Shown here piece after piece: positions 30,020-43,469 of a stretch of DNA of 64,000 nucleotides; position 1 is the first letter of the stretch; each line of letters starts with the position of its first letter. Origin of the DNA: an uncultured bacterium (GTDB lineage: Bacteria > Lernaellota > Lernaellaia > JACKCT01). Under the pieces are notes generated by a model that saw only the letters and a list, made by a program, of their open reading frames with translations, made no database searches and was not told the origin of the DNA. The position numbers and the translations under genes are program-made. The DNA lies in contig CAZPJD010000184.1 in NCBI GenBank assembly GCA_964586775.1, positions 69,987 to 133,986 of the forward strand, given 5' to 3'.

Positions 30020-33280
<3,261 letters not shown>

Positions 33281-33594
33281 GTCGGGGCGGGCTCTCCCTC
33301 GTGACTTTGGATTTCGTCTCGCGGATGCGCCGGTGCCCGCCGTCGGTTCAGGGGAACCGGCGCGACGGGCTGGGATGTCGGAAAACGACACGGCGCCGAA
33401 CCGCGGGCGCGAACTTTACCAGCAACGTCGCCGGGGAACAAGCGAGACGCGCCCGGTCGTTTGGCGGCCGCGATCGGCGACGAAACTGAGGAAATCGGTC
33501 GAATTTTCGGGGGTTTCGCCAATTTTCGGCTATTTTCCAAAACCGATGTTGTGGTAGCATTTGGTCGCGTTTTTTCGCGCGGATGGAGTCCCTC

Positions 33595-35259
33595 ATGACG
33601 TTTCGGATTTCGGCGCTGCTGATCGGAACCTTGATGCTTGCCGCCTCGTTCGCATGGGCCGATGCGCCGATCGCACGGCACGCGATCGTCGCGCCCGGTT
33701 CCGGCGGATTCGACACCCTGGTTCCACCGCGCCAAACCACGCCGCGCACGGGTTCGCCCACCATCGCCGCGACGCGCAAGGTGCTCTTCGACACCTCGCA
33801 CTATCCCTACACCGACACGGGCGACCCCAGTACCGAGTTCGTCGCGTTCATCCAGACCTTCGAGACCTACGGCTTCGACGTCTACGTGCAGTCGGATTTC
33901 GCGAATCTGATGAATTACGACGTGGTGGTCATGAGCCTGCCGCAGATGGCGTTTTCGCCCAGCGACGTGACCGCCATCGAGGCGTATCTCGACGCGGGCA
34001 AGATCTTCATCATCTTCGGCGAATGGGGTGGTTACGACCCCGGCGGCGCGGGCGGCTGGACGAACCAGTACGTCAACGACCTGCTCGAAGACCTGGAGAC
34101 GGGTGTGCAGATCGTCGATTCGCAGGTCTACGAGCCGACCAGCTACTACCTCTACAACAAGTGGATCCTGCTCGACGAATTTTCCGATCACTGTCTCAAC
34201 GACGGGATCGGCATGGTCGTGCATCCGCGATGCAGCCACCTCGAAACCGACAACCCCGACAGCGGCCTCTACTTCTCGTCGCCGCAGTCGTACCTGCTCG
34301 AGTTCCCTTCGCAGAACGGCCCCTTCACGATCGCGGCCATTCCCGACCCCACCGTGCATCCCGACTGGAAGATGTTCATCATCGGCGACACCAACCTGTT
34401 CGCCAGCGATCCGCAGATCGACGCGTTCAACCTCTACGACAACCGGGACTACTCCATCAATCTGATGTTCTGGTGCGACATCGACTGCGACCTCGACAAC
34501 GACGGCTACGAGGGCGGCCAGTGCGGCGGCGACGATTGCGACGACTCCGATCCCGACGTCCACCCCGGCGCGACCGAGATCGACTGCGACGGCATCGATC
34601 AGAACTGCGACGGCGAATCGCCCTGCCCCTGCACCACCGACGAGCAGTGCAGCGACCACCAGTTCTGCAACGGCGTCGAAACCTGCAACACCGATACGGG
34701 CGAGTGCGAACCGGCGACCGAGGGTCCCTGCCTCGACGACGGCCTGTGGTGCAACGGCACCGAGCAGTGCAACGAATTCACCGACCAATGCTGGCAGTTC
34801 GGTGTGCCTTGCCCCGGCGATGACGGCGTCTATTGCAACGGCGAAGAAAGTTGCAACGAGGACTCGAACGAGTGCGAGAGTTCGGGCAATCCCTGCGCCG
34901 ACGACGGCGTCTTCTGCAACGGCTACGAAGAGTGCAACGAGTTGACCGACCTGTGCGAAACGAACTCCGTCTGCGAAGACGACGGCGCGTTCTGCAACGG
35001 CGACGAGACGTGCGTCGAAGAGACGCAGATTTGTGAGCACGCCGGAAACCCCTGCCCCGACGGCGCGATCTGCCTGGAGGACGAGGACTCCTGCGACGAG
35101 CCCGACGAGGACGACGACGTCGAGCCCCCGACGGATGACGACGAGGAAACGCCGCTGGCAGATCCGACGCCGTCCGGCGAGAAAGAGGACGAGGCGGGTT
35201 GGCCCGAGGGCCAAGTCACCGGCGGATGCTGCGGCTGCGGCGACAACGGATCGGATTGA
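33595..35259 (+). CDS. secreted protein with an N-terminal alpha/beta domain and C-terminal Myxococcales-type cysteine-rich repeats
   Basis: Signal peptide MTFRISALLIGTLMLAASFAWA; the track starts 4 codons earlier, at 33583. Repeated DDG(L/V/A)(W/Y/F)CNGxExCNE modules and a CDxDNDGY...DCDDSD metal-binding-like motif. The acidic tail ends in GGCCGCG. Confidence 0.8.
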   Translation: MTFRISALLIGTLMLAASFAWADAPIARHAIVAPGSGGFDTLVPPRQTTPRTGSPTIAATRKVLFDTSHYPYTDTGDPSTEFVAFIQTFETYGFDVYVQSDFANLMNYDVVVMSLPQMAFSPSDVTAIEAYLDAGKIFIIFGEWGGYDPGGAGGWTNQYVNDLLEDLETGVQIVDSQVYEPTSYYLYNKWILLDEFSDHCLNDGIGMVVHPRCSHLETDNPDSGLYFSSPQSYLLEFPSQNGPFTIAAIPDPTVHPDWKMFIIGDTNLFASDPQIDAFNLYDNRDYSINLMFWCDIDCDLDNDGYEGGQCGGDDCDDSDPDVHPGATEIDCDGIDQNCDGESPCPCTTDEQCSDHQFCNGVETCNTDTGECEPATEGPCLDDGLWCNGTEQCNEFTDQCWQFGVPCPGDDGVYCNGEESCNEDSNECESSGNPCADDGVFCNGYEECNELTDLCETNSVCEDDGAFCNGDETCVEETQICEHAGNPCPDGAICLEDEDSCDEPDEDDDVEPPTDDDEETPLADPTPSGEKEDEAGWPEGQVTGGCCGCGDNGSD

Positions 35260-35320
35260 GGTCGGCCGGCGACGACGTTCGTACGGATTCACGCGCCGAC
35301 GACACGAGGTCCGCGGACTG

Positions 35321-35995
35321 ATGGGTTCCGTTTCGGTCGAAAACTACCTCAAGGCCATCTTCGAGATCGAGGAGGAGCACGGCCGCGCCACGACGACGGC
35401 GCTGGCCGAGCGCCTCGCTATCGCCTCGCCATCGGTGACCGAGATGGTCAAGCGGCTCGCCGGCGAGAAACCGCCGCTGGTCGAATACCGCCGTCACCAC
35501 GGCGTGACGCTCTCCGACGAAGGTCGACGGCAAGCCCTGCGCGTGCTGCGCAGGCATCGTCTGCTCGAAACGTTTCTGATGCGCGTGCTCGGGTATTCGT
35601 GGGACGAGGTTCACGAGGAAGCGGAGCAGCTCGAGCATCACATCTCGGAGCGCTTCGAGAACCGCATCGCGGCCCTGCTCGATCATCCCGCGCACGACCC
35701 GCACGGCTCGCCCATCCCCGCCGAGGACGGCGCGATGGAAACCGTCGCCTCGATGTCGCTGCGCGATCTCGCCGTCGGACGCTCGGCGCGCGTGGTGCGG
35801 ATTCGCGACGATTCACCCGATCTGCTGCGCTACCTGGCCACGCTCGGCATCGAGCCCGATGCCGCGATCGAGGTCGAGGAGCGAAGCCCCTTCGACGGCC
35901 CCCTGCACGTGTTCGTGGGGACGGGAAGACGTCGCCGCCGGAAGGTCATCGGTCTCAATGCCGCGGGTCGCGTGCTCGTCAGTCGCGACGAGTGA
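35321..35995 (+). CDS. DtxR/MntR-family metal-dependent transcriptional regulator (with C-terminal FeoA/SH3-like domain)
   Basis: ATG at 35321 verified. An HTH is followed by the metal-binding/dimerisation region HISERFENRIAALLDHPAHDPHGSPIP and an SH3-like tail. 224 aa. The upstream 96 codons of the track ORF are Arg/Thr-rich and were discarded. Confidence 0.85.
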   Translation: MGSVSVENYLKAIFEIEEEHGRATTTALAERLAIASPSVTEMVKRLAGEKPPLVEYRRHHGVTLSDEGRRQALRVLRRHRLLETFLMRVLGYSWDEVHEEAEQLEHHISERFENRIAALLDHPAHDPHGSPIPAEDGAMETVASMSLRDLAVGRSARVVRIRDDSPDLLRYLATLGIEPDAAIEVEERSPFDGPLHVFVGTGRRRRRKVIGLNAAGRVLVSRDE

Positions 35996-36007
35996 AACCG
36001 AACCCGT

Positions 36008-37327
36008 TCAGCGTTTCGTCGCGGGCGGCGTGGGGCGAATCCGGTCGGTAATTGGGCGACCGTGGGGATCGTGGTCGGGATTCCCCAGATGCCCCGCCAG
36101 ATCTTCGCGCAGGTCGTCCGTCAGGTAGTGTTCCACGCGGTCCGCCGGTCCGTGCACGCGGTCGGGCGCAACGCCGAAATATTTCTCCAGATAGCTCTCC
36201 CACAACCGATGCCCGCGAATCAGATTCGCGGCCCGCGACGCGCCGCGTTCGGTGAGAATCAGGGAATCGGCGTCCCGCCGGATTTCGCGCGCGCGGATCG
36301 CCGCCGTGAGGGCAATGCGGGACCAAATCTCGCCGCCGACCGCCGACAAGGCGTCGCGCTCCGAGAGACGACGATCCGGCGACGCCTCGCGAAGGCGATA
36401 GAGCATGCCGAGCAGGTCCTCGCGCACCACGTTGAGCGCGGCCCAGGCACGGGAGACGCGCTTCGCGAGCCAGCCGTAGCGGGGCGCGAAAAAGACTACC
36501 AGCGCGAAGGTCAGCCCCGCGGCGACGGCCATCATTCCGGCGGCCGATGTGGACAGCGCGCTCGCGCCGAACCGACCCACGAGCGCGGCGAGCGCGCCGA
36601 GTGCGGCGGAGATGATCGCCATGACCCAGAGACGATCGGTGAGCAGGTACGCCGTCGCGGGCGGCACGATGAGCATCGCCACGACGAGGATCGACCCGAC
36701 CGCCTCGAACGCGGCGACGCAGTACGCGGCGGTCATGAACATCAGCGCCGCGTGAACCCACGACGCGCGGATCCCCAAGGTCGTCGCGAGGTCGGGGTCG
36801 AAGGACACGATTTTGAGTTCCTTCCAAAACGCGACCACGAATGCGATCACCGCGAGCGTCATGACGCCCATCGTGACGGTGATGCGCGGGACCTCGAAGC
36901 CCCATATCGCGCGCGTGTCCAGCGCCGCCGATTCGAGGATTCCATACAGCACGCACCCCGGATCGAGATCGACGGCGCTCGCCGAGCGCGTGATGATGAC
37001 GACGCCCGCGGCGAAGAGCGTCGTGAAGACCACGCCCATGGCCGCGTCCTCGGGCACGCCGGCGAAGCGGCGGATCCACTCGGTCAGCGCGGCGGTCGCC
37101 AAACCCGCCAGCGCCGCGCCGACGAGCATCGCCAACGGCGCGCGGGACTGCGTGACGACGAAAGAGATCGCCAGCCCCGGCAGGATTGCGTGAGAGATCG
37201 CGTCGCCCAGCAGACTCAGGCGGCGAAGAACGAGGTAGTTGCCGAGCAGCGCGCCCGACACGCCCACCATCGCACCGGTCACGACGATCCAGAACGCGAT
37301 GGCGTCGAACCCGAGCACCGTGCCCAT
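36008..37327 (-). CDS. metal (Mn/Zn) ABC transporter permease fused to a C-terminal DtxR-like metal-binding/dimerisation domain
   Basis: The start MGTVLGFDAIAFWIVV, with ATG at 37325-37327 overlapping the stop of the upstream permease. It has 8-9 TM segments of the MntB/TroD type. The C-terminus LWESYLEKYFG...HLGNPDHDPHGRPI parallels the DtxR-family domain of the regulator at 35321. Confidence 0.85.
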   Translation of the reverse strand: MGTVLGFDAIAFWIVVTGAMVGVSGALLGNYLVLRRLSLLGDAISHAILPGLAISFVVTQSRAPLAMLVGAALAGLATAALTEWIRRFAGVPEDAAMGVVFTTLFAAGVVIITRSASAVDLDPGCVLYGILESAALDTRAIWGFEVPRITVTMGVMTLAVIAFVVAFWKELKIVSFDPDLATTLGIRASWVHAALMFMTAAYCVAAFEAVGSILVVAMLIVPPATAYLLTDRLWVMAIISAALGALAALVGRFGASALSTSAAGMMAVAAGLTFALVVFFAPRYGWLAKRVSRAWAALNVVREDLLGMLYRLREASPDRRLSERDALSAVGGEIWSRIALTAAIRAREIRRDADSLILTERGASRAANLIRGHRLWESYLEKYFGVAPDRVHGPADRVEHYLTDDLREDLAGHLGNPDHDPHGRPITDRIRPTPPATKR

Positions 37328-38724
37328 CACGCCCCTCCCACGTGGGCGTGCGCTTTCGCGGGCTCGGGCCACCGGCCCTCGCGGCGAAGCATCGACTCCA
37401 ATTCCTCGACGAGCGAGGGCGGTAGCGCCTGCTCGAGCTGCGTCGTGTCGCGATCGGCGTAGTCGCCGGCGACATCGGCATAGCGCGTCAGAAACAGTTC
37501 CCACAACCGTCTCGACTTGGCGACCGCCGCGGCGTCGGCAAGCCCACTCGGGGTCAATCGAACGCTTCCGTCCGACAACTCGACCTGCCTGCGGCGGATT
37601 GCGATGGCGATTTCGTGGTGGACATGGCGCTCGCTCCACGACCTGGCGGTCAGCACCCGATCGAGGGGGATCGCGGGAAGTGCGACGGGGTTCGGGCCGG
37701 AAAGTTCGTAGAGCGTGCGCAGGAGATTTTGCCGCGCGACGCGCGAGCGCATCGACGCAAATGAAATCGCGCGGGAGATGACGCCGCGTCGCGGGGCGAC
37801 GAGCATGGACACGGAAAAGATCGCCCCGCCGGTAAGCACGATCATCGCCCCGGCGGGAAACTCCGACCAATGCGCGCTCGCCGCCGTTCCCGCCGCGCCG
37901 GTCACGAGGCCGAATATTCCCGCGAGGATGAGCATGTGGCCGAGGCGCTCGGTCCAGAATCGCGCCGAAACGCCGGGCAGGATGATGAGCGACGCCATGA
38001 GCACGACGCCGACGGCGGGAAGACCGATGACGACCGCCGCGACGAGCAGCGCCATCATGAGCGCGTCGAGCGCCAATACGGGGAAGCCCTGGACCGACGC
38101 GAACGCGGCGTCGAAGGACAGGAGCTTGAATTCCTTGTAGAGCAGCAGCGTGATCGCGACGATGTTCGCGCCCACGAGGGCGATGAAGACGAGATCCTGG
38201 CTCACCATGCCGGCCGTCTTGCCGAGCAGAAACGAGTCGAGCCCCGCCTGCCTACCGGTCGGATCGTTCTGCGCGATGCCCGACAGCGCGATTCCCGCGC
38301 CATAGAAGACCGATAGCACGATGCCGATCGCCGCGTCGGCCTTGATGCGCGTGTGCCGCTGCAGCCACGACACGCACGTCGATCCCAATAGGCCGGAGGC
38401 CAGCGCCCCCGCCAGAAGCCACGCGAAGTCCCGCTCGCGCAGGACCAGAAACGCCGCGGCCACGCCGGGCAGCGCCGCATGGGCGACCGCGTCTCCGACC
38501 AGCGAACGACGGCGCAGCACGGCGTAAGAACCGATGATGCCCGATGCCGCGCCCAGCAGGCTCGTTCCCAGCAGCACGAGGAGCGTGTTGTACTGAAGTC
38601 CGACGGCGCCCGCGACGGTCTCGACGATGCGCACCACGCCCGCCGGACCGACGAGCGCGTGCGCGGCGGCCTGCGCGCCGATCAGCACCCCCAGGACGAT
38701 GGCGAGTCGCCGCAGCGGCATCAC
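37327..38724 (-). CDS. metal ABC transporter permease (second TroC/MntB-type subunit), also carrying a C-terminal DtxR-like extension
   Basis: The TM core is paralogous to the downstream permease. The C-terminal soluble tail is RRLWELFLTRYADVAGDYADRDTTQLEQ. 465 aa. Confidence 0.85.
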   Translation of the reverse strand: MMPLRRLAIVLGVLIGAQAAAHALVGPAGVVRIVETVAGAVGLQYNTLLVLLGTSLLGAASGIIGSYAVLRRRSLVGDAVAHAALPGVAAAFLVLRERDFAWLLAGALASGLLGSTCVSWLQRHTRIKADAAIGIVLSVFYGAGIALSGIAQNDPTGRQAGLDSFLLGKTAGMVSQDLVFIALVGANIVAITLLLYKEFKLLSFDAAFASVQGFPVLALDALMMALLVAAVVIGLPAVGVVLMASLIILPGVSARFWTERLGHMLILAGIFGLVTGAAGTAASAHWSEFPAGAMIVLTGGAIFSVSMLVAPRRGVISRAISFASMRSRVARQNLLRTLYELSGPNPVALPAIPLDRVLTARSWSERHVHHEIAIAIRRRQVELSDGSVRLTPSGLADAAAVAKSRRLWELFLTRYADVAGDYADRDTTQLEQALPPSLVEELESMLRREGRWPEPAKAHAHVGGA

Positions 38725-38758
38725 ATCCCCGAAAATCCCGGCAAACGTCCGCTCGCGC

Positions 38759-39556
38759 TCATCGCGTCGCCCGACGCACGGCTTCCGCCGCCTGATCGAG
38801 GTGCGTGAGACGGCCGCCGTAGGTTTTTTGCAGATTCTCGGTCGTATAGGTTTCCTCGACGGGACCGCTGGCGACGACGCGCATGTTGAGCAGAACGAGG
38901 TGGTCGAAGTAGTCGCGCACCGTTTGCAACGTGTGATGCACGACCACGACCGTTTTTCCCGAGTCCTTGAGCTCGTGGAGCAGGTTCAGGATCGCCCGTT
39001 CGGTGGCGGCATCCACGCCCGCGAAGGGTTCGTCCATGAAATACAGCCGCGCGTCCTGAGCGAGCGCGCGAGCGAGAAACACGCGCTGTTGCTGTCCGCC
39101 CGAGAGCTGGTTGATCTGGCGCTTCGCGAATCCGCCCATGCCGACCTTTTCCAAACATTCGAGCGCGCGCGCCGCGTCGGCCTTGCCGGGACGGCGAAGC
39201 CACCCGATGCGCCCGTAGCATCCCATCAGGACGACCTCGAGCGCGCTGACCGGAAAGTCCCAATCGACGGACTCACGCTGCGGGACATAACCGACGAGCG
39301 ATCGCTGCTCTTCGTAAGGTTTGCCGAAGATTTCGACCTTGCCGCTCGCGCGCGGGATGAGACCGAGCACGGCCTTCATGAACGTGCTCTTGCCCGCGCC
39401 GTTGGGACCGACGATGGCGATCAGCCGCCGCGCGGGCAGCGAGAGATCGACATCCCAGAGCACGGGCTTGCGATGATACGCCACCGTCAAATCGCGAACC
39501 GACAGCGGCGGGGATTCGCCAGTATCGATTTCGGCTCGTTCGAGCGCGGTGCTCAT
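38759..39556 (-). CDS. metal ABC transporter ATP-binding protein (MntA/ZnuC/TroB-like)
   Basis: Walker [10 protein letters not shown], signature LSGGQQQRV, Walker [13 protein letters not shown]. The start is probably MSTALE; the track starts 2 codons earlier, at 39562. Confidence 0.85.
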
Positions 39557-39563
39557 GCCCACC

Positions 39564-40538
39564 TCACTTCAACGCGGCGACGACGGTGTTCACGTTGTGG
39601 CGCACCATGCCGACGTAGGTGCCCTCGGGCGAACCCTCGGCGCCCATGGCGTCGCTGAAGAGCTGGCCGCCGACGGTGACCGACGCGCCGCGCGACCGCG
39701 CACCCTCGACGAGCGCCTCGACGTTTTTGCGCGGCACGCTGGACTCGACGAAGACCGCCTTCACGCCGCGCTTGGCGATGAGATCGACGAGGGCGTTGAT
39801 CTCTTTCACCCCGGCCTCGCTCTCGGTGCTGATGCCCTGAATCCCGCGGACCTCCATCCCGTACGCCCGTCCGAAATAGCCGAACGCGTCGTGCGCCGTG
39901 ATGAGCACGCGGCGCTGGGGAGGAATGGTCTGGATCTGCTCGCCCACCCATTGGTGCAGGGTCTGAAGCTCCGCGGTCAGTGCCGCCGCGTTTTTCTCGA
40001 AGTCCGACTTGTGCGCCGGGTCGATTTCGGCGAGCCCGTCCCGGATCGCCTCGGCGGCGGACATCCACATCGACACGTCAAACCAGATGTGCGGATCGTA
40101 GTTGCCCTGCATCTCGGGCGGCTCGCGCAGCTTCGACGGATCGATCTTGCCGCTGACGGGAATCACCGGCTTCTTGCGCGCCAGTGATACCAGGATGTCG
40201 CCGAGTTTTCCTTCGAGATGCAGCCCGTTGTAAAACACGATGTCCGCGCCCGAGAGAAGCCGGATGTCGGATTCGTTGGCCTTGTACAGATGCGGATCGG
40301 TCCCCGGGCCCATCAAGCCGGTCGCGCGGACGTGTTCGCCGCCAACGATGCGAACCATATCGGTGATCATGCCGATCGTGGCGACGGCATTGATCGGGCC
40401 GGTCTTCGGTGCCGGGGCGGTCTCTTTCGCGGGGACCGCCTCGCCGCCTTTGCACGCGGCAAAAAGACACCAGAAACCGATCGCGAAATAAACGGGAAGA
40501 AGGCTGGATTTGGACAGGGCCAAGCGGAATTTGCGCAT
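39564..40538 (-). CDS. metal ABC transporter substrate-binding lipoprotein (TroA/MntC/ZnuA cluster-9 family)
   Basis: Lipobox LFAAC and typical cluster-9 solute-binding-protein motifs ([17 protein letters not shown]). 324 aa. Confidence 0.85.
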
Positions 40539-40576
40539 GACGACCTCTTCGTGTCACGTTTGTCCTAATTCATGTT

Positions 40577-40590
40577 TTAGTCAAGCCTAA
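40577..40590. promoter_or_regulatory. palindromic putative metalloregulator (DtxR/MntR-type) operator TTAGTCAAGCCTAA at the mnt/tro promoter
   Basis: The half-sites TTAGGC and TTAGTC are inverted, with a TTAGG core as in DtxR-family boxes. The site overlaps a TTGACT -35-like hexamer about 40-55 nt upstream of the TroA-like start. A second TTAGG copy lies at 40564-40570. Confidence 0.3.
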
Positions 40591-40632
40591 TAGTATGACG
40601 AACATCAGACCCGCGCCGCTTCGGCCCGGGGC

Positions 40633-42423
40633 TTATTCGTCGATCTCGTGCTCGAAGACGAATTCGACGCGGCGGTTTTTTTGGCGATCTGGCTCGTTGG
40701 TGTTCGGCGCGATCGGCTTCGACGGCCCGTAGCCCACGGCATAAAGCAGCTTGGGATCGACGCCGCGCTGGATCAGCCATGCGCGTACGGCCTCGGCGCG
40801 TCGCTGCGAGAGGCGCTCGTTGTGCACGATCCAGCCCTCGCCCGAGGTGTGCCCCTCGATGCGCACGCGCTTGACGCCGGCCGCGGCCTGCTCCGCCTTG
40901 ATCTTCGCGAGCGCGTCTTGCAGGACGGGGGCCGAGATGTCGCGGATGCGCGGCGAATCGAAGAAGAAGTGGATCGTGCCGGTCAGGATGACCTTTTTTT
41001 GCAGCACGATCGTGACCTCGCGCTTCTCGCCCGGTTCCAGCGTGACGCCGACGTCCTCGAAGGTGAATCCCGAGCCGGTTCCGCGCACGAGGTATTCGCC
41101 CGGTTCGAGATCGCCGGTCCAAGTTCCGGCGGGCAGCTCGTGCGTGATCGATCCCGGCTCATCCATGCGCGTGATCGTGATCGTCGAATTTGCGATGGGT
41201 GACTTGTCCTTCTCAAAAACAACGCGAACGCTCAGTTGCGGCATCGGCGGCGGAACCGGCGAGAGCGCGAACGACACCGTCCGCTGCTGCGTGTCGGGCA
41301 GATCCACGGTCGCCGACTGGGCGATGTAACCGTCGGCCGACGCGCCGATCGTGTAGGAACCCGGCTCGATCACCGCGCCCCAGGTCCCCGCCCCGTCGGT
41401 TATTACGGTGAACGACTTTTCGCCCGTGACATCGAGCGTCGCCGCGAGCGGCTGGCCGTCCGCGTTCGTCACGACGACATCGAGCCGTCCCTGCGGCACG
41501 TACACGGGCTTCTTCACGCACGTCGGGTAGTAGTCGAATCCCGCGACGGCCCGGTATTGCGGCGAACCGAGCCCGCCGCCGAATCCCCCGCCGCCCCCGC
41601 CGATCACGCGGAACCCCGAGCCGAACTTCCAGCGCAGGGTCGCCAGAGCTTCCATCGGCACCGGTCGGATCTCGTCGTTGGTCTCGTTCGCGTCCGACCA
41701 AAACGACTCGCCGAAGTACTCGATCGAGAAACCGAAGCCCGATGCGAAATCGCGCGAGATGCCCGCGCCGAAGAGGATCGAGTCGCCCACCTCGAGGCCC
41801 AGGACCTCGCGCGTCGGCCGGTAGAGGTATCCGCCGCTCGCGGCGATGTTGAAGATCCCCAGATCCTTCTCGACGATCAGTTTCGCGCCGGGATTGACCG
41901 TCCCCTCGCCGAGCAGTCGATCGGGATCGCCCGTGGGAAACGTGGCAAACGCCGCGAGCGCGAGGCCGAAGGGGCCGGGGTCATCGCGCACGAGGCCGAA
42001 CTTGATCTCGCCCTTCAGGTCGCCGAACGCGCTTGCGTTTTCCTGCGCGGCGCCTTGGGTGCCGAGTTCCTCGATGTCGTCCAGCGACTTTCCGCGCGCT
42101 CGAACGTGAAACGGCGCTTCAACGCCCAGGCTCAGCCAACGCCACGGCGAGAACGCCGCCGTCAGGTGCGCAGTCGCCACCGACGCGAAGACGGCGGAAT
42201 CGAAGTCGTCGTCAATGCGTTGCTCGACGAGCCCCGAGGCGTAATCGCCATAAAGCCCGAAGCCGTAGCACATCCGCGGCATCGTGGCGGCGTCTTCGAT
42301 CGCGAGAAATCGCCCGTTGAAAATGCTCGGGCGAAACATCTGAGCGTTGTACGACTGATCGACCGCCATGGCCGGCGCGGTCAGCGCGAGCAGGACGGTC
42401 GCGATAAAAAGCGCGCGCCTCAT
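40633..42423 (-). CDS. OmpA-family outer-membrane protein with central carboxypeptidase-regulatory-like domains
   Basis: A signal peptide and an N-terminal beta-barrel-like region. The C-terminal OmpA/MotB peptidoglycan-binding domain has the motifs IEGHTS...NERLSQRRAEAV...GYGPSKPIAPN...RRVEF. 596 aa. Confidence 0.85.
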   Translation of the reverse strand: MRRALFIATVLLALTAPAMAVDQSYNAQMFRPSIFNGRFLAIEDAATMPRMCYGFGLYGDYASGLVEQRIDDDFDSAVFASVATAHLTAAFSPWRWLSLGVEAPFHVRARGKSLDDIEELGTQGAAQENASAFGDLKGEIKFGLVRDDPGPFGLALAAFATFPTGDPDRLLGEGTVNPGAKLIVEKDLGIFNIAASGGYLYRPTREVLGLEVGDSILFGAGISRDFASGFGFSIEYFGESFWSDANETNDEIRPVPMEALATLRWKFGSGFRVIGGGGGGFGGGLGSPQYRAVAGFDYYPTCVKKPVYVPQGRLDVVVTNADGQPLAATLDVTGEKSFTVITDGAGTWGAVIEPGSYTIGASADGYIAQSATVDLPDTQQRTVSFALSPVPPPMPQLSVRVVFEKDKSPIANSTITITRMDEPGSITHELPAGTWTGDLEPGEYLVRGTGSGFTFEDVGVTLEPGEKREVTIVLQKKVILTGTIHFFFDSPRIRDISAPVLQDALAKIKAEQAAAGVKRVRIEGHTSGEGWIVHNERLSQRRAEAVRAWLIQRGVDPKLLYAVGYGPSKPIAPNTNEPDRQKNRRVEFVFEHEIDE

Positions 42424-43469
42424 AGCGAGCAGGACCCGCCGGTGTATTCCACGGCCTCGTCCTTCGGCGTCGGCGCTGGACCGGCGTCGTCATCGGCGTC
42501 GTCATCCGCCGCCGCGTCGTCGTCCATGTCGTCGTCCGCGGTGTCGTCATCGGTCGTATCATCGTCCGCGTCATCATCCGCATCGTCATCCGAGTCGTCA
42601 TCGGTGTCGTCGTCAGTGTCGTCGTCGCCGGGCTGCGTTGTCGTGGTGGTCGATGTCGGGACGCTGGTCGTCGTCGTCGTGGTCGTGGTGGGTTCCGTCG
42701 ATGTTGTCGTCGTGGGCGACGTGGTCGACGTGGTCGTCGGCTCCGTCGTGGTCGTGGTGGTCGTCGTTGGTTCCGTCGTTGTCGTGGGCTCGGTCGTGGT
42801 GGTCGTGGTGGTGGTCGTGGTGGTGGTCGTCGTCACGAGGCAGTATTCGGTGATGGCGCGAATCATCACGTTGCCGTCGGGCCGCACCACATCCCAGCCG
42901 GTCCAGCCATCCTCGTCGTTGCCGACCCAGCCGTGTCCCGCGTGCGGAAGATCCTGATCGAGGCCCACCCCGCTGTCACCCGGCCCGGTCTGGAACTCCA
43001 CGCCCATGCACCAAGCGCCGCTCGCGATCGGGGTCGCAAAGACCGCCTCTCCGGAGACATCCAAGCTAAAAAACCCCGCGCCCGGCGGATCGAAGACACC
43101 CGAGACGAACCACGGCGCGGCATCCGGGGGCGAAATGGCGTCGGTCGCCGAATAGACCACCCAGCGCATCGACGACGTTTCTTCAATGCCGACTAAAAAC
43201 GCTGATATTTCAATCAAATACGATGGGTACTGCTCGGGGACGATGCACGTGATGTACTGCGTGCCGGGGAAAGCGGTGAAGAGCGAGTCCCAAGCCCCGT
43301 CGTCCTCGATCAGGTCCTCGGTGGCCGAGACCTCGCACTCCGCGGTCGCCGCGTCGAAGTCCGAAGTCGTCCATTGCCCCGATGCACCGAGGACGACGAA
43401 CGAGATCGCCCCCATCAGGGCGTACAGGCCGATCTGAACAAATCGACGTCTCGCGCGCAACGAAGCCAC
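42420..43469 (-). CDS. secreted protein with a globular N-domain, poly-Thr linker and poly-Asp tail
   Basis: GTG start at 43467-43469 with a signal-anchor. It has a 180-aa normal-composition domain, about 70 residues of T/P/E/S (TTTTTTTTTTTTTEPTTTTEPTTTT...), and then D-rich tripeptide repeats (DDDTDDDTDDDSDDDADDD...). The stop overlaps the OmpA-family start (ATGA). Confidence 0.55.
   Translation of the reverse strand: MASLRARRRFVQIGLYALMGAISFVVLGASGQWTTSDFDAATAECEVSATEDLIEDDGAWDSLFTAFPGTQYITCIVPEQYPSYLIEISAFLVGIEETSSMRWVVYSATDAISPPDAAPWFVSGVFDPPGAGFFSLDVSGEAVFATPIASGAWCMGVEFQTGPGDSGVGLDQDLPHAGHGWVGNDEDGWTGWDVVRPDGNVMIRAITEYCLVTTTTTTTTTTTTTTEPTTTTEPTTTTTTTTEPTTTSTTSPTTTTSTEPTTTTTTTTSVPTSTTTTTQPGDDDTDDDTDDDSDDDADDDADDDTTDDDTADDDMDDDAAADDDADDDAGPAPTPKDEAVEYTGGSCSL
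42440..42840. repeat. coding microsatellite-like tandem codon repeats ((GAC/GAT)n and (ACC/ACG)n) inside the Thr/Asp-rich gene
   Basis: On the + strand there are runs of gtcgtcatc... and ggtcgtggtggt... units over about 400 nt. They generate long spurious ORFs in several frames. Confidence 0.6.

Follow-up and report, generated by a model that had tools for sequence, protein, structure and literature searches.

A predicted metal ABC importer with DtxR/MntR-like domains on both permeases and a convergently encoded DtxR-family regulator

The stretch of DNA analysed here, 64 kb from an uncultured bacterium (hereafter referred to as the window; G+C content about 65%), contains a five-gene region that very probably encodes an ATP-binding cassette (ABC) importer of the TroABCD/YtgABCD type for manganese, zinc or iron, in which both permeases are fusions of the YtgC-YtgR kind and next to which a separate three-domain regulator is encoded convergently. 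The importer genes form an operon on the minus strand in the order binding protein-ATPase-P1-P2, where P1 and P2 denote the two permeases. Each permease ends in a cytoplasmic tail of about 150 residues that comprises the full winged helix-turn-helix (wHTH) and dimerisation/metal-binding core of DtxR/MntR repressors. Direct support for this description comes from the domain identities, the conservation of the metal ligands, the predicted fold, the topology by homology and the co-variation of operators with regulators. As to function, we tentatively put forward a two-tier negative feedback, suggested by the sequences, in which the regulator would act on an operator upstream of the operon and the tails would sense metal in place on the transporter.

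The fusion of a permease with a repressor is as such already published for YtgC-YtgR of Chlamydia. The window differs from Chlamydia in that both permeases are fused, one of the two tails is ligand-degenerate, and a separate regulator is present together with an operator of the matching class. A preliminary description of this DNA had called the fusion unusual; both permeases are indeed tailed, but the kind of fusion was known, and the mechanism of a cleaved repressor had not been considered. Permease-repressor fusions have been studied only in Chlamydia, which has a reduced genome and no other DtxR regulator and in which the fused domain is cut off as a repressor. The contrast is with free-living bacteria (Planctomycetota, Verrucomicrobiota, Myxococcota/Desulfobacterota and others), represented by the window and several hundred protein clusters, where both permeases are usually fused and a separate regulator is often present, its recognition helix tracking the class of operator. 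The literature searched appears to contain no study of the doubled fusion in free-living bacteria or of the signs that its mode of action there is a different one.

The first gene of the operon (39564-40538, minus strand) encodes a TroA-like substrate-binding lipoprotein of the ZnuA/TroA family (324 aa), which scores 274 bits against PF01297 and 280 bits against Treponema pallidum TroA (1toa). All TroA ligand positions, H68, H133, H199 and D279 (His/His/His/Asp), are kept in the alignment, and the earlier assignment to the tro/mnt type is thereby upheld. The second gene (38759-39562, minus strand) encodes an ABC ATPase of 267 aa, with a start that is uncertain by two codons; it matches ABC_tran (PF00005) with 101 bits in Pfam, has its nearest NCBIfam models among the ATPases of manganese/iron ABC transporters and carries no extra domain in Pfam. 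The genes of P1 (37327-38721, minus strand; 464 aa) and P2 (36008-37327, minus strand; 439 aa) overlap by the TGA of the former and the ATG of the latter (ATGA), with a GGAGGGG ribosome-binding site before P2.

Both permeases have the ABC-3 core (PF00950; 206.5 bits for P1 and 146.8 bits for P2 in Pfam), with an invariant Asp/His pair in transmembrane (TM) helix 2 (D77/H81 in P1, D42/H46 in P2). In the AlphaFold2 model of P2 (pLDDT, the predicted local distance difference test, 86.6), the nine-TM core superposes on Streptococcus pneumoniae PsaC (7kyp) with a TMt of 0.83 in Foldseek. In PsaC, TM4 leads into an extracellular gate helix and TM5 into a coupling helix, and the last of the nine TM helices, TM9, sits in the dimer interface (PMC8346216). 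The P2 model has the same order of elements, which places its C-terminus in the cytoplasm. Independent support for a cytoplasmic tail comes from natural proteins in which P1 and P2 are joined in a single chain, since these have an extra hydrophobic helix between the end of P1 (core or tail) and the P2 core. We also observed that P1 begins with a signal-peptide-like segment (38650-38721, minus strand; MPLRRLAIVLGVLIGAQAAAHA followed by LVG, with an AXA motif) ahead of the ABC-3 core, which fits the periplasmic N-terminus expected of a nine-TM core. PsaBC thus shares with the importer the core fold, the nine TM helices, the Asp/His site in TM2 and the location of TM9 in the dimer interface, whereas PsaC is homodimeric and ends after TM9 without a cytoplasmic domain. 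In P2, an invariant P-x-x-G comes after the last TM helix and leads into a single uninterrupted helix of 30 residues, of which the first DtxR-fold helix is a part. In both permeases, some 20 residues of connector helix link the last core helix to the two-domain DtxR/MntR core in the cytoplasm.

The DtxR/MntR-like domain of P2 occupies 36047-36430 on the minus strand (approximately residues 300-427), and the tail of P1 occupies 37330-37776 on the same strand (approximately residues 316-464). PF02742 (Fe_dep_repr_C) is matched with 73.6 bits by P2 and 31.6 bits by P1, at a Pfam cut-off of 27; the preliminary description had recognised DtxR-like tails on both permeases, and the peptides it quoted are present. 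It had, in addition, likened the tail of the distal permease to the separately encoded regulator, with which the P2 tail shares 37% identity over 71 aa (E 2e-11). The likeness is not limited to the dimerisation/metal segment described there, as the tails contain the whole wHTH and dimerisation core. The P2 tail aligns with residues 5-142 of PDB entry 5zr4, winged helix included, and its PDB hits include DR2539 and Mycobacterium tuberculosis MntR. The model of the P2 tail superposes in Foldseek on DR2539, IdeR, SloR and DtxR over about 130 residues with TMt of about 0.8 and a root-mean-square deviation (rmsd) of 2.2-2.8 Å; the fit to DR2539 has a TM-score of 0.8 and an rmsd of 2.3 Å. The families of P1 and P2 tails are homologous to each other (hhalign probability 99.8%, E 2e-30, 134 columns), and the two tails of the window are 32% identical.

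We aligned 226 P2-type and 163 P1-type tails with the regulator of the window, DtxR and Bacillus subtilis MntR. In P2-type tails, Asp occupies DtxR position 10 in 98%, His position 79 in 100%, Glu position 83 in 100%, His position 98 in 99%, Glu position 105 in 99% and His position 106 in 100%, and position 102 holds Glu, Asp or His. The seven positions read D-H-E-H-D-E-H in the P2 tail of the window, plus a DPH motif, its ligands being D304, H373, E377, H392, D396, E399, H400, D420 and H422. Within the DPH motif, D420 is invariant among P2 tails and H422 nearly so; their counterparts in DR2539 are D126/H128 of the binuclear ancillary site (bioRxiv 10.1101/2024.02.12.579695). P1-type tails have Asn or His at position 10, His at 79 (82%), Glu at 83 (88%), Asp at 98 (85%), Asp or Glu at 102 (88%), Glu at 105 (83%) and His at 106 (75%). 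The P1 tail of the window reads N-R-E-D-T-E-Q; it has lost three of six ligands, having R79, T102 and Q106 where its family mostly has H79, D102 and H106. A check of the ligand residues thus bears out the tail of P2, in which every position is present (99-100% conserved in the 226 homologues, with the 98% at position 10 noted above), but not that of P1 in this organism.

In the DtxR family, the manganese-type sensors are marked by Asp at position 10, in place of Met, and by an acidic residue at position 102, in place of Cys. The ligands of the tail and of the regulator are of the manganese type. TroA binds both zinc and manganese, and for the importer itself the sequence leaves manganese, zinc and iron as candidate substrates.

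Conservation is uneven along the fused proteins. The mean pairwise identity is 35% in the wHTH part, which evolves fastest, about 50% in the dimerisation/metal domain and about 60% in the membrane core. The recognition-helix signature of the family, (S/T)xx(T/S)V(T/S)xM at positions 37-44, carries 3.6-4.0 bits in regulators and about 1 bit in tails, in which it is absent. The tails resemble the DtxR-family repressors DR2539, M. tuberculosis MntR, SloR, IdeR and DtxR in their fold, in their primary and ancillary ligands and, with DR2539, in the DPH motif; they differ from them in being tethered to the membrane and in lacking the SH3-like domain and the conserved recognition helix.

Occurrence and relatives of the fused permeases

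The exact sequences of P2 and the regulator are present in NCBI, as is a 100% identical P1 (P0121), all on one 157-kb contig; the close relatives, from a Deltaproteobacteria bacterium, carry no more specific names than 'metal ABC transporter permease' and 'metal-dependent transcriptional regulator'. PF00950 and PF02742 occur together on nearly all of the best 120 homologues of each permease. The P2 tail alone retrieved 646 clusters (50% identity) at E <=1e-10 among 1.84 billion representatives, and among the best 150 of those clusters all classifiable members are fused to a permease or are fragments in which the end of TM9 is still present at the start. We considered a recent local fusion with the neighbouring regulator gene and rejected it, as the best 150 clusters are fused tails or such fragments of them and the identity to the regulator is only 37%.

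We then compared related loci, namely the best 80 from one genome per GTDB species. These belong mainly to Planctomycetota and Verrucomicrobiota, with single examples labelled Desulfobacterales, delta proteobacterium, Sumerlaeota, Krumholzibacteriia, Omnitrophota and Gammaproteobacteria, and almost all have the order binding protein-ATPase-P1-P2. Among 79 loci, 52 have both tails, 16 only that of P2 and 11 only that of P1, the last being found in Opitutales and Verrucomicrobiales. The full ligand set is present in 11 of 11 loci with a P1 tail only and in 16 of 16 with a P2 tail only. Each degenerate P1 tail in these 79 loci has a P2 partner in which at least six of seven ligand positions are kept, with variation only at position 102.

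Some tailed P2-type permease genes are orphans, with no binding protein, ATPase or P1 gene within 6 kb (L049, L058 and L059; L058 is from the complete genome of Planctomicrobium sp. SH527). Other complete genomes with the fusion include that of Tautonia plasticadhaerens and the Aureliella and Limisphaerales chromosomes. The natural single-chain permeases, 780-810 aa long, are of two types. In the first (type a, n=15: P0054, P0159, P0161, P0164, P0165, P0169, P0170, P0173, P0175, P0181-P0183, P0195, P0197 and P0203), the order is P1 core, P1 tail, extra TM helix and P2 core, so that the DtxR-like domain is internal, between the membrane domains. In the second (type b: P0174, P0184, P0190 and P0192), it is P1 core, extra TM helix, P2 core and P2 tail. 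The AlphaFold2 model of P0054 has a pLDDT of 80, but values below 50 for the linker and the latter half of the tail. An obligatory pairing of two tails was another candidate; it is weakened by the single-tail operons and the single-chain proteins, which keep all tail-specific residues. The invariant charges R311 and E314 in helix alpha-1, which are specific to tails, are kept with or without a tailed partner.

These patterns bear on the idea that the tails are a metal acceptor or buffer at the pore exit, with a chaperone-like hand-off, or a structural leftover of an ancestral troD-troR fusion. The ligand sites are indeed located just beneath TM9 on its cytoplasmic side, the P1 tail shows decay in this lineage, and a read-through fusion would be an easy origin, as the tro operon ends in troR (PMC2628430). 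We nevertheless consider the idea unlikely in either form. Nine ligand positions are near-invariant over several hundred clusters at 50% identity, and every transporter keeps at least one ligand set, intact save at most position 102; together, these two observations point to a selected, specific function. A mere remnant, moreover, would not keep a confident fold.

The closest studied system is that of Chlamydia trachomatis. The first permease of its ytgABCD operon (CT069/CTL0325) has a C-terminal DtxR-like domain, YtgR, which is cleaved off in infection and in E. coli as a 28-30 kDa product; the last 139 residues of YtgC-YtgR are enough for iron-dependent repression, and YtgR also regulates trpBA (PMC5599777, PMC6504234, PMC7755916). 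YtgR binds and represses the ytg promoter in a metal (iron)-dependent manner (PMC5599777, PMC6504234). The cleavage site and the protease are unidentified in Chlamydia too (PMC5599777), and orthologous permease-repressor fusions are noted in 11 phyla in the same review, which cites Thompson et al. 2012 for them (PMC5599777).

Using the YtgCR sequences in the supplement of PMC7755916, we found that the P2 tail is 32% identical to C. trachomatis YtgR over 153 aa (E 4e-28) and the P1 tail 26% identical over 76 aa (E 6e-07). The ligand string of YtgR is H-H-E-H-E-E-H plus DPH, the counterpart of the P2 string given above. The window and YtgABCD share the order binding protein-ATPase-permease-permease and an ABC-3 permease followed by some 140 aa of DtxR-like domain in which the DtxR ligands are kept. 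In contrast, only the first permease is described as fused in Chlamydia, which also has no separate DtxR regulator, whereas the window has two fused permeases and a full adjacent regulator. The P1 tail of the window is of a derived type, with Asp at position 98 and no DPH motif, and is ligand-degenerate; and cleavage and DNA binding have been shown for YtgR, whereas they are hypothetical for the tails of the window. Chlamydial YtgC combines a P1-type core (134 versus 54 bits, Simkania) with a P2/YtgR-type tail (68 versus 14 bits, C. trachomatis), which indicates that tails and cores have recombined in evolution. The P1-type tail, with Asp at position 98, no DPH motif and a conserved R-S-W-S before helix 3, is a separate lineage that is uncharacterised.

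The standalone regulator and its candidate operator

The regulator gene (35321-35995, plus strand) encodes 224 aa with wHTH, dimerisation/metal and FeoA/SH3-like domains, which match PF01325 (Fe_dep_repress), PF02742 and PF04023 (FeoA/SH3) with 53.7, 113.7 and 59.2 bits, respectively. Its best NCBIfam match is the Thermus-type MntR (193 bits, below the cut-off), and its ligand positions 10, 79, 83, 98, 102, 105 and 106 read N-H-E-H-E-E-H. Unlike the tails, it has the conserved recognition helix of the family. Its stop codon and that of P2 are separated by 12 nt, not 13 as stated earlier. The regulator gene adjoins the operon in the window and in two relatives, L081 (87% identical) and L082 (65%). 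In L082, the gene for a regulator with DtxR and SH3 domains is co-transcribed with one of the VIT1 family (PF01988), and this pair (3462-4873 of L082) converges on the end of the P2 gene with an overlap of 11 nt. The VIT1-family product is likely an iron/manganese exporter, and the layout suggests that import and export are controlled from one spot.

The candidate operator, ATTAGGCTTGACTAAA (40575-40592, minus strand), lies upstream of the binding-protein gene; its core, TTAGGCTTGACTAA, runs from 40590 to 40577 and has TTGAC in the spacer. TTAGTCAAGCCTAA at 40577-40590 is an imperfect palindrome with 10 of 14 positions matching. It is the only TTAG-N6-CTAA in the 64 kb, against 0.01 expected by chance, and no second copy was found before the regulator gene or elsewhere in the window. 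L081 keeps the operator as ATTAGGATTGACTAAA, with diverging flanks. The block conserved between the two is ATTAGG(C/A)TTGACTAAA(A/T)(C/A)ATGAATTAGG, of which the part downstream of the operator, (A/T)(C/A)ATGAATTAGG, occupies 40564-40576 (minus strand) and includes a third TTAGG half-site at 40568-40564.

We collected palindromes from the regions upstream of the binding-protein gene in L001-L080 (for example L035, L046, L007, L019, L004, L057 and L074) and found five classes. Class A, TTTTGA-N4-TCAAAA, matches the intact half of the published mutant of the Treponema denticola TroR operator (PMC2628430); class B, TGTAGC-N4-GCTACA, has the architecture of the enterobacterial MntR box AACATAGCnnnnGCTATGTT (PMC1698941); class C, TTAG[GC]-N4-[GC]CTAA, is the type of the window operator; class D is TTAACC-N2-GGTTAA and class E is TCTTGA-N4-TCAAGA. 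At class B loci, a small MntR-like gene (140-190 aa) often adjoins. The regulators most similar to that of the window (L011, L021, L004 and L024) adjoin class C boxes, two of which have TTGAC in the spacer as in the window. The recognition helices of the regulators differ with the class: GTATSM for A, xSV(T/S)(E/N/G)M for C (PSVTEM in the window), AAVTKM for D and GTVT(T/I)MM for E. The recognition helix SPSVTEM and the wing YRRHHG are common to the regulator of the window and the regulators at loci with the same class of operator. The recognition helices of the tails show no sorting by operator class.

Because the regulator helices sort by class and those of the tails do not, and because the tails lack the recognition signature and have the winged-helix part as their fastest-evolving portion, the palindrome is most likely the operator of the standalone regulator. 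Its earlier proposal as an operator gains credibility from its retention in the 87%-identical relative and from the class C boxes upstream of the operons with the most similar regulators. The further proposal that it overlaps the -35 element did not fare as well. No -35/-10 pair of the sigma-70 type was found around the palindrome, and no acceptable -10 after TTGACT was seen in the window by eye; TTGAC in the spacer is shared with relatives, and L011 and L021 have the promoter-like pairs TTGACC-N16-TATTCT and TTGACC-N16-TAAATT. An overlap with the -35 would be plausible. Within 33000-43000, no leader RNA or riboswitch matched Rfam at E <=1. The operator classes and the co-varying regulator helices make up a small natural data set on the DNA-recognition code of the DtxR family.

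The arrangement has likenesses to TroABCD-TroR of T. pallidum and T. denticola, namely the His3Asp site of TroA, the gene order, and a DtxR-family repressor with a palindromic operator upstream of the first gene (PMC2628430). It differs in that TroR is a free protein encoded by the last gene of its operon, whereas the regulator of the window is convergent and its permeases have DtxR-like tails. From the half of the mutant operator that is intact, the TroR box is apparently of class A; the box of the window is of the TTAGG type.

A tail might also pair with the soluble regulator through the dimerisation domain and hold it at the membrane, in a coupling of transporter abundance or state to transcription, similar in logic to MalK-MalT. 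Compatible with such a capture are the better conservation of the dimerisation domain in the tails (50% mean pairwise identity), its 37% identity to that of the regulator, the adjacency of the regulator gene in the window, L081 and L082, and the existence of single-tail variants, which have no partner tail. Roughly one in two related loci has an adjacent DtxR/MntR-type gene, but without enrichment in those with a single tail (about 3-5 of 11 with P1 only and 0 of 16 with P2 only, versus about 21 of 52 with both tails). The two tails start from adjacent TM9 helices and are each other's likeliest partners. We judge regulator capture improbable.

How the tails may act

In the two-tier feedback that we tentatively favour, the metal-loaded regulator would bind the TTAGG-CTTG-ACTAA palindrome upstream of the binding-protein gene and repress the operon, and the fused domains, remaining attached to the transporter, would sense metal in the cytoplasm. 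The P2 tail would hold metal in a manganese-type primary site (D304, D396, E399 and H400) and an ancillary site (H373, E377, H392, D420 and H422), and, once bound, the metal would clamp the dimerisation domain and helix alpha-1, an unbroken continuation of TM9, together. In DtxR and MntR, metal binding locks the first helix against the dimerisation domain; since the corresponding helix of the tail, with ligand position 10, continues from TM9, such locking would be a direct lever on the gate. The clamp would hold the importer inactive, following the logic of trans-inhibition, because TM9 lies at the permease dimer interface. The P1 tail, with half of its ligands gone, would serve as a structural partner. 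We infer the binding of metal, its effect on transport and the identity of the operator-binding protein from the features described above.

Such an arrangement would resemble MetNI and ModBC in its logic only: there, the substrate, once imported, binds to a cytoplasmic domain of the transporter, which is thereby shut down. The regulatory domain of MetNI/ModBC is on the ATPase and of an unrelated fold, whereas in the window it is on the permeases; inhibition has been demonstrated for the former and is proposed for the latter. If the tails do act in place, they would be the first case in which a transcription-factor core of the DtxR fold serves an ABC importer as a built-in allosteric brake, and the first such brake on the permease rather than on the ATPase. 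Action in place is suggested by the near-invariant ligands, the drifting DNA-reading surface, the dedicated co-varying regulator and the enclosure of the tail in 15 single-chain proteins.

Several points weigh against it. The only experimental data on proteins of this kind, those on YtgR, show cleavage and DNA binding. Helix 3 of YtgR resembles that of P2 tails, so that the missing canonical signature does not exclude DNA binding by the tails. The whole wHTH fold and a net charge of +3 are retained in tails across several phyla. No regulator gene is found near the operon in roughly half of the related loci, though one may be encoded elsewhere in the genome. The co-variation tests rest on 15 regulators and are confounded by phylogeny, and the structural evidence consists of models of individual chains.

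There is a strong rival, in which one or both tails, cut off or still tethered, would form dimers on binding metal and act as repressors of the operon or of other genes, as in Chlamydia, leaving to the regulator a different or overlapping regulon. It has an experimental precedent in the homologue YtgC, with its 139-aa repressor and 28-30 kDa product (PMC5599777, PMC6504234, PMC7755916), to whose YtgR the P2 tail aligns along its full length with 32% identity and with the ligands in common; the tails keep the wHTH fold, the wing and positive charge, and many related operons have an upstream palindrome and no adjacent regulator gene. Nevertheless, we hold it to be somewhat less likely for the window than action in place. 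The recognition helices of the tails show little conservation and do not follow the class of operator as those of the regulators do; a full regulator adjoins the operon; the domain lies between two membrane domains in single-chain variants; and the P1 tail of the window has lost metal ligands.

Action in place and capture of the regulator could, with a very slight chance of being right, be combined outside Chlamydia: the tails, unreleased, would make up a metal-dependent clamp of pseudo-symmetric build under the permease dimer, in which one site is active and the other degenerate; this clamp would gate transport and also dock the regulator through the shared dimerisation surface, so that one membrane complex would read out transporter state and transcription. 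Whether the tails act in place or are released, the fusions offer tractable material from non-pathogens on why a repressor is fused to its own transporter, a question that includes the still unexplained cleavage step in Chlamydia.

Genes around the operon

Directly upstream of the regulator gene, on the same strand and after a gap of 61 nt, a gene at 33583-35259 (plus strand) encodes a secreted protein of 558 aa that matches ABC_transp_aux with 25.6 bits (below the cut-off) and contains an extended series of Cys-rich repeats (…FCNGxExC…) as well as an acidic tail. This gene and the regulator gene may be co-transcribed. On the other side, a protein of 349 aa with very long poly-Thr/poly-Asp stretches and no Pfam match is encoded at 42420-43469 (minus strand). 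Immediately upstream of the operon, 40633-42423 (minus strand) encodes an OmpA-family protein with CarboxypepD_reg domains; an OmpA-family gene has the same position in L081, and the neighbourhood is thus syntenic.

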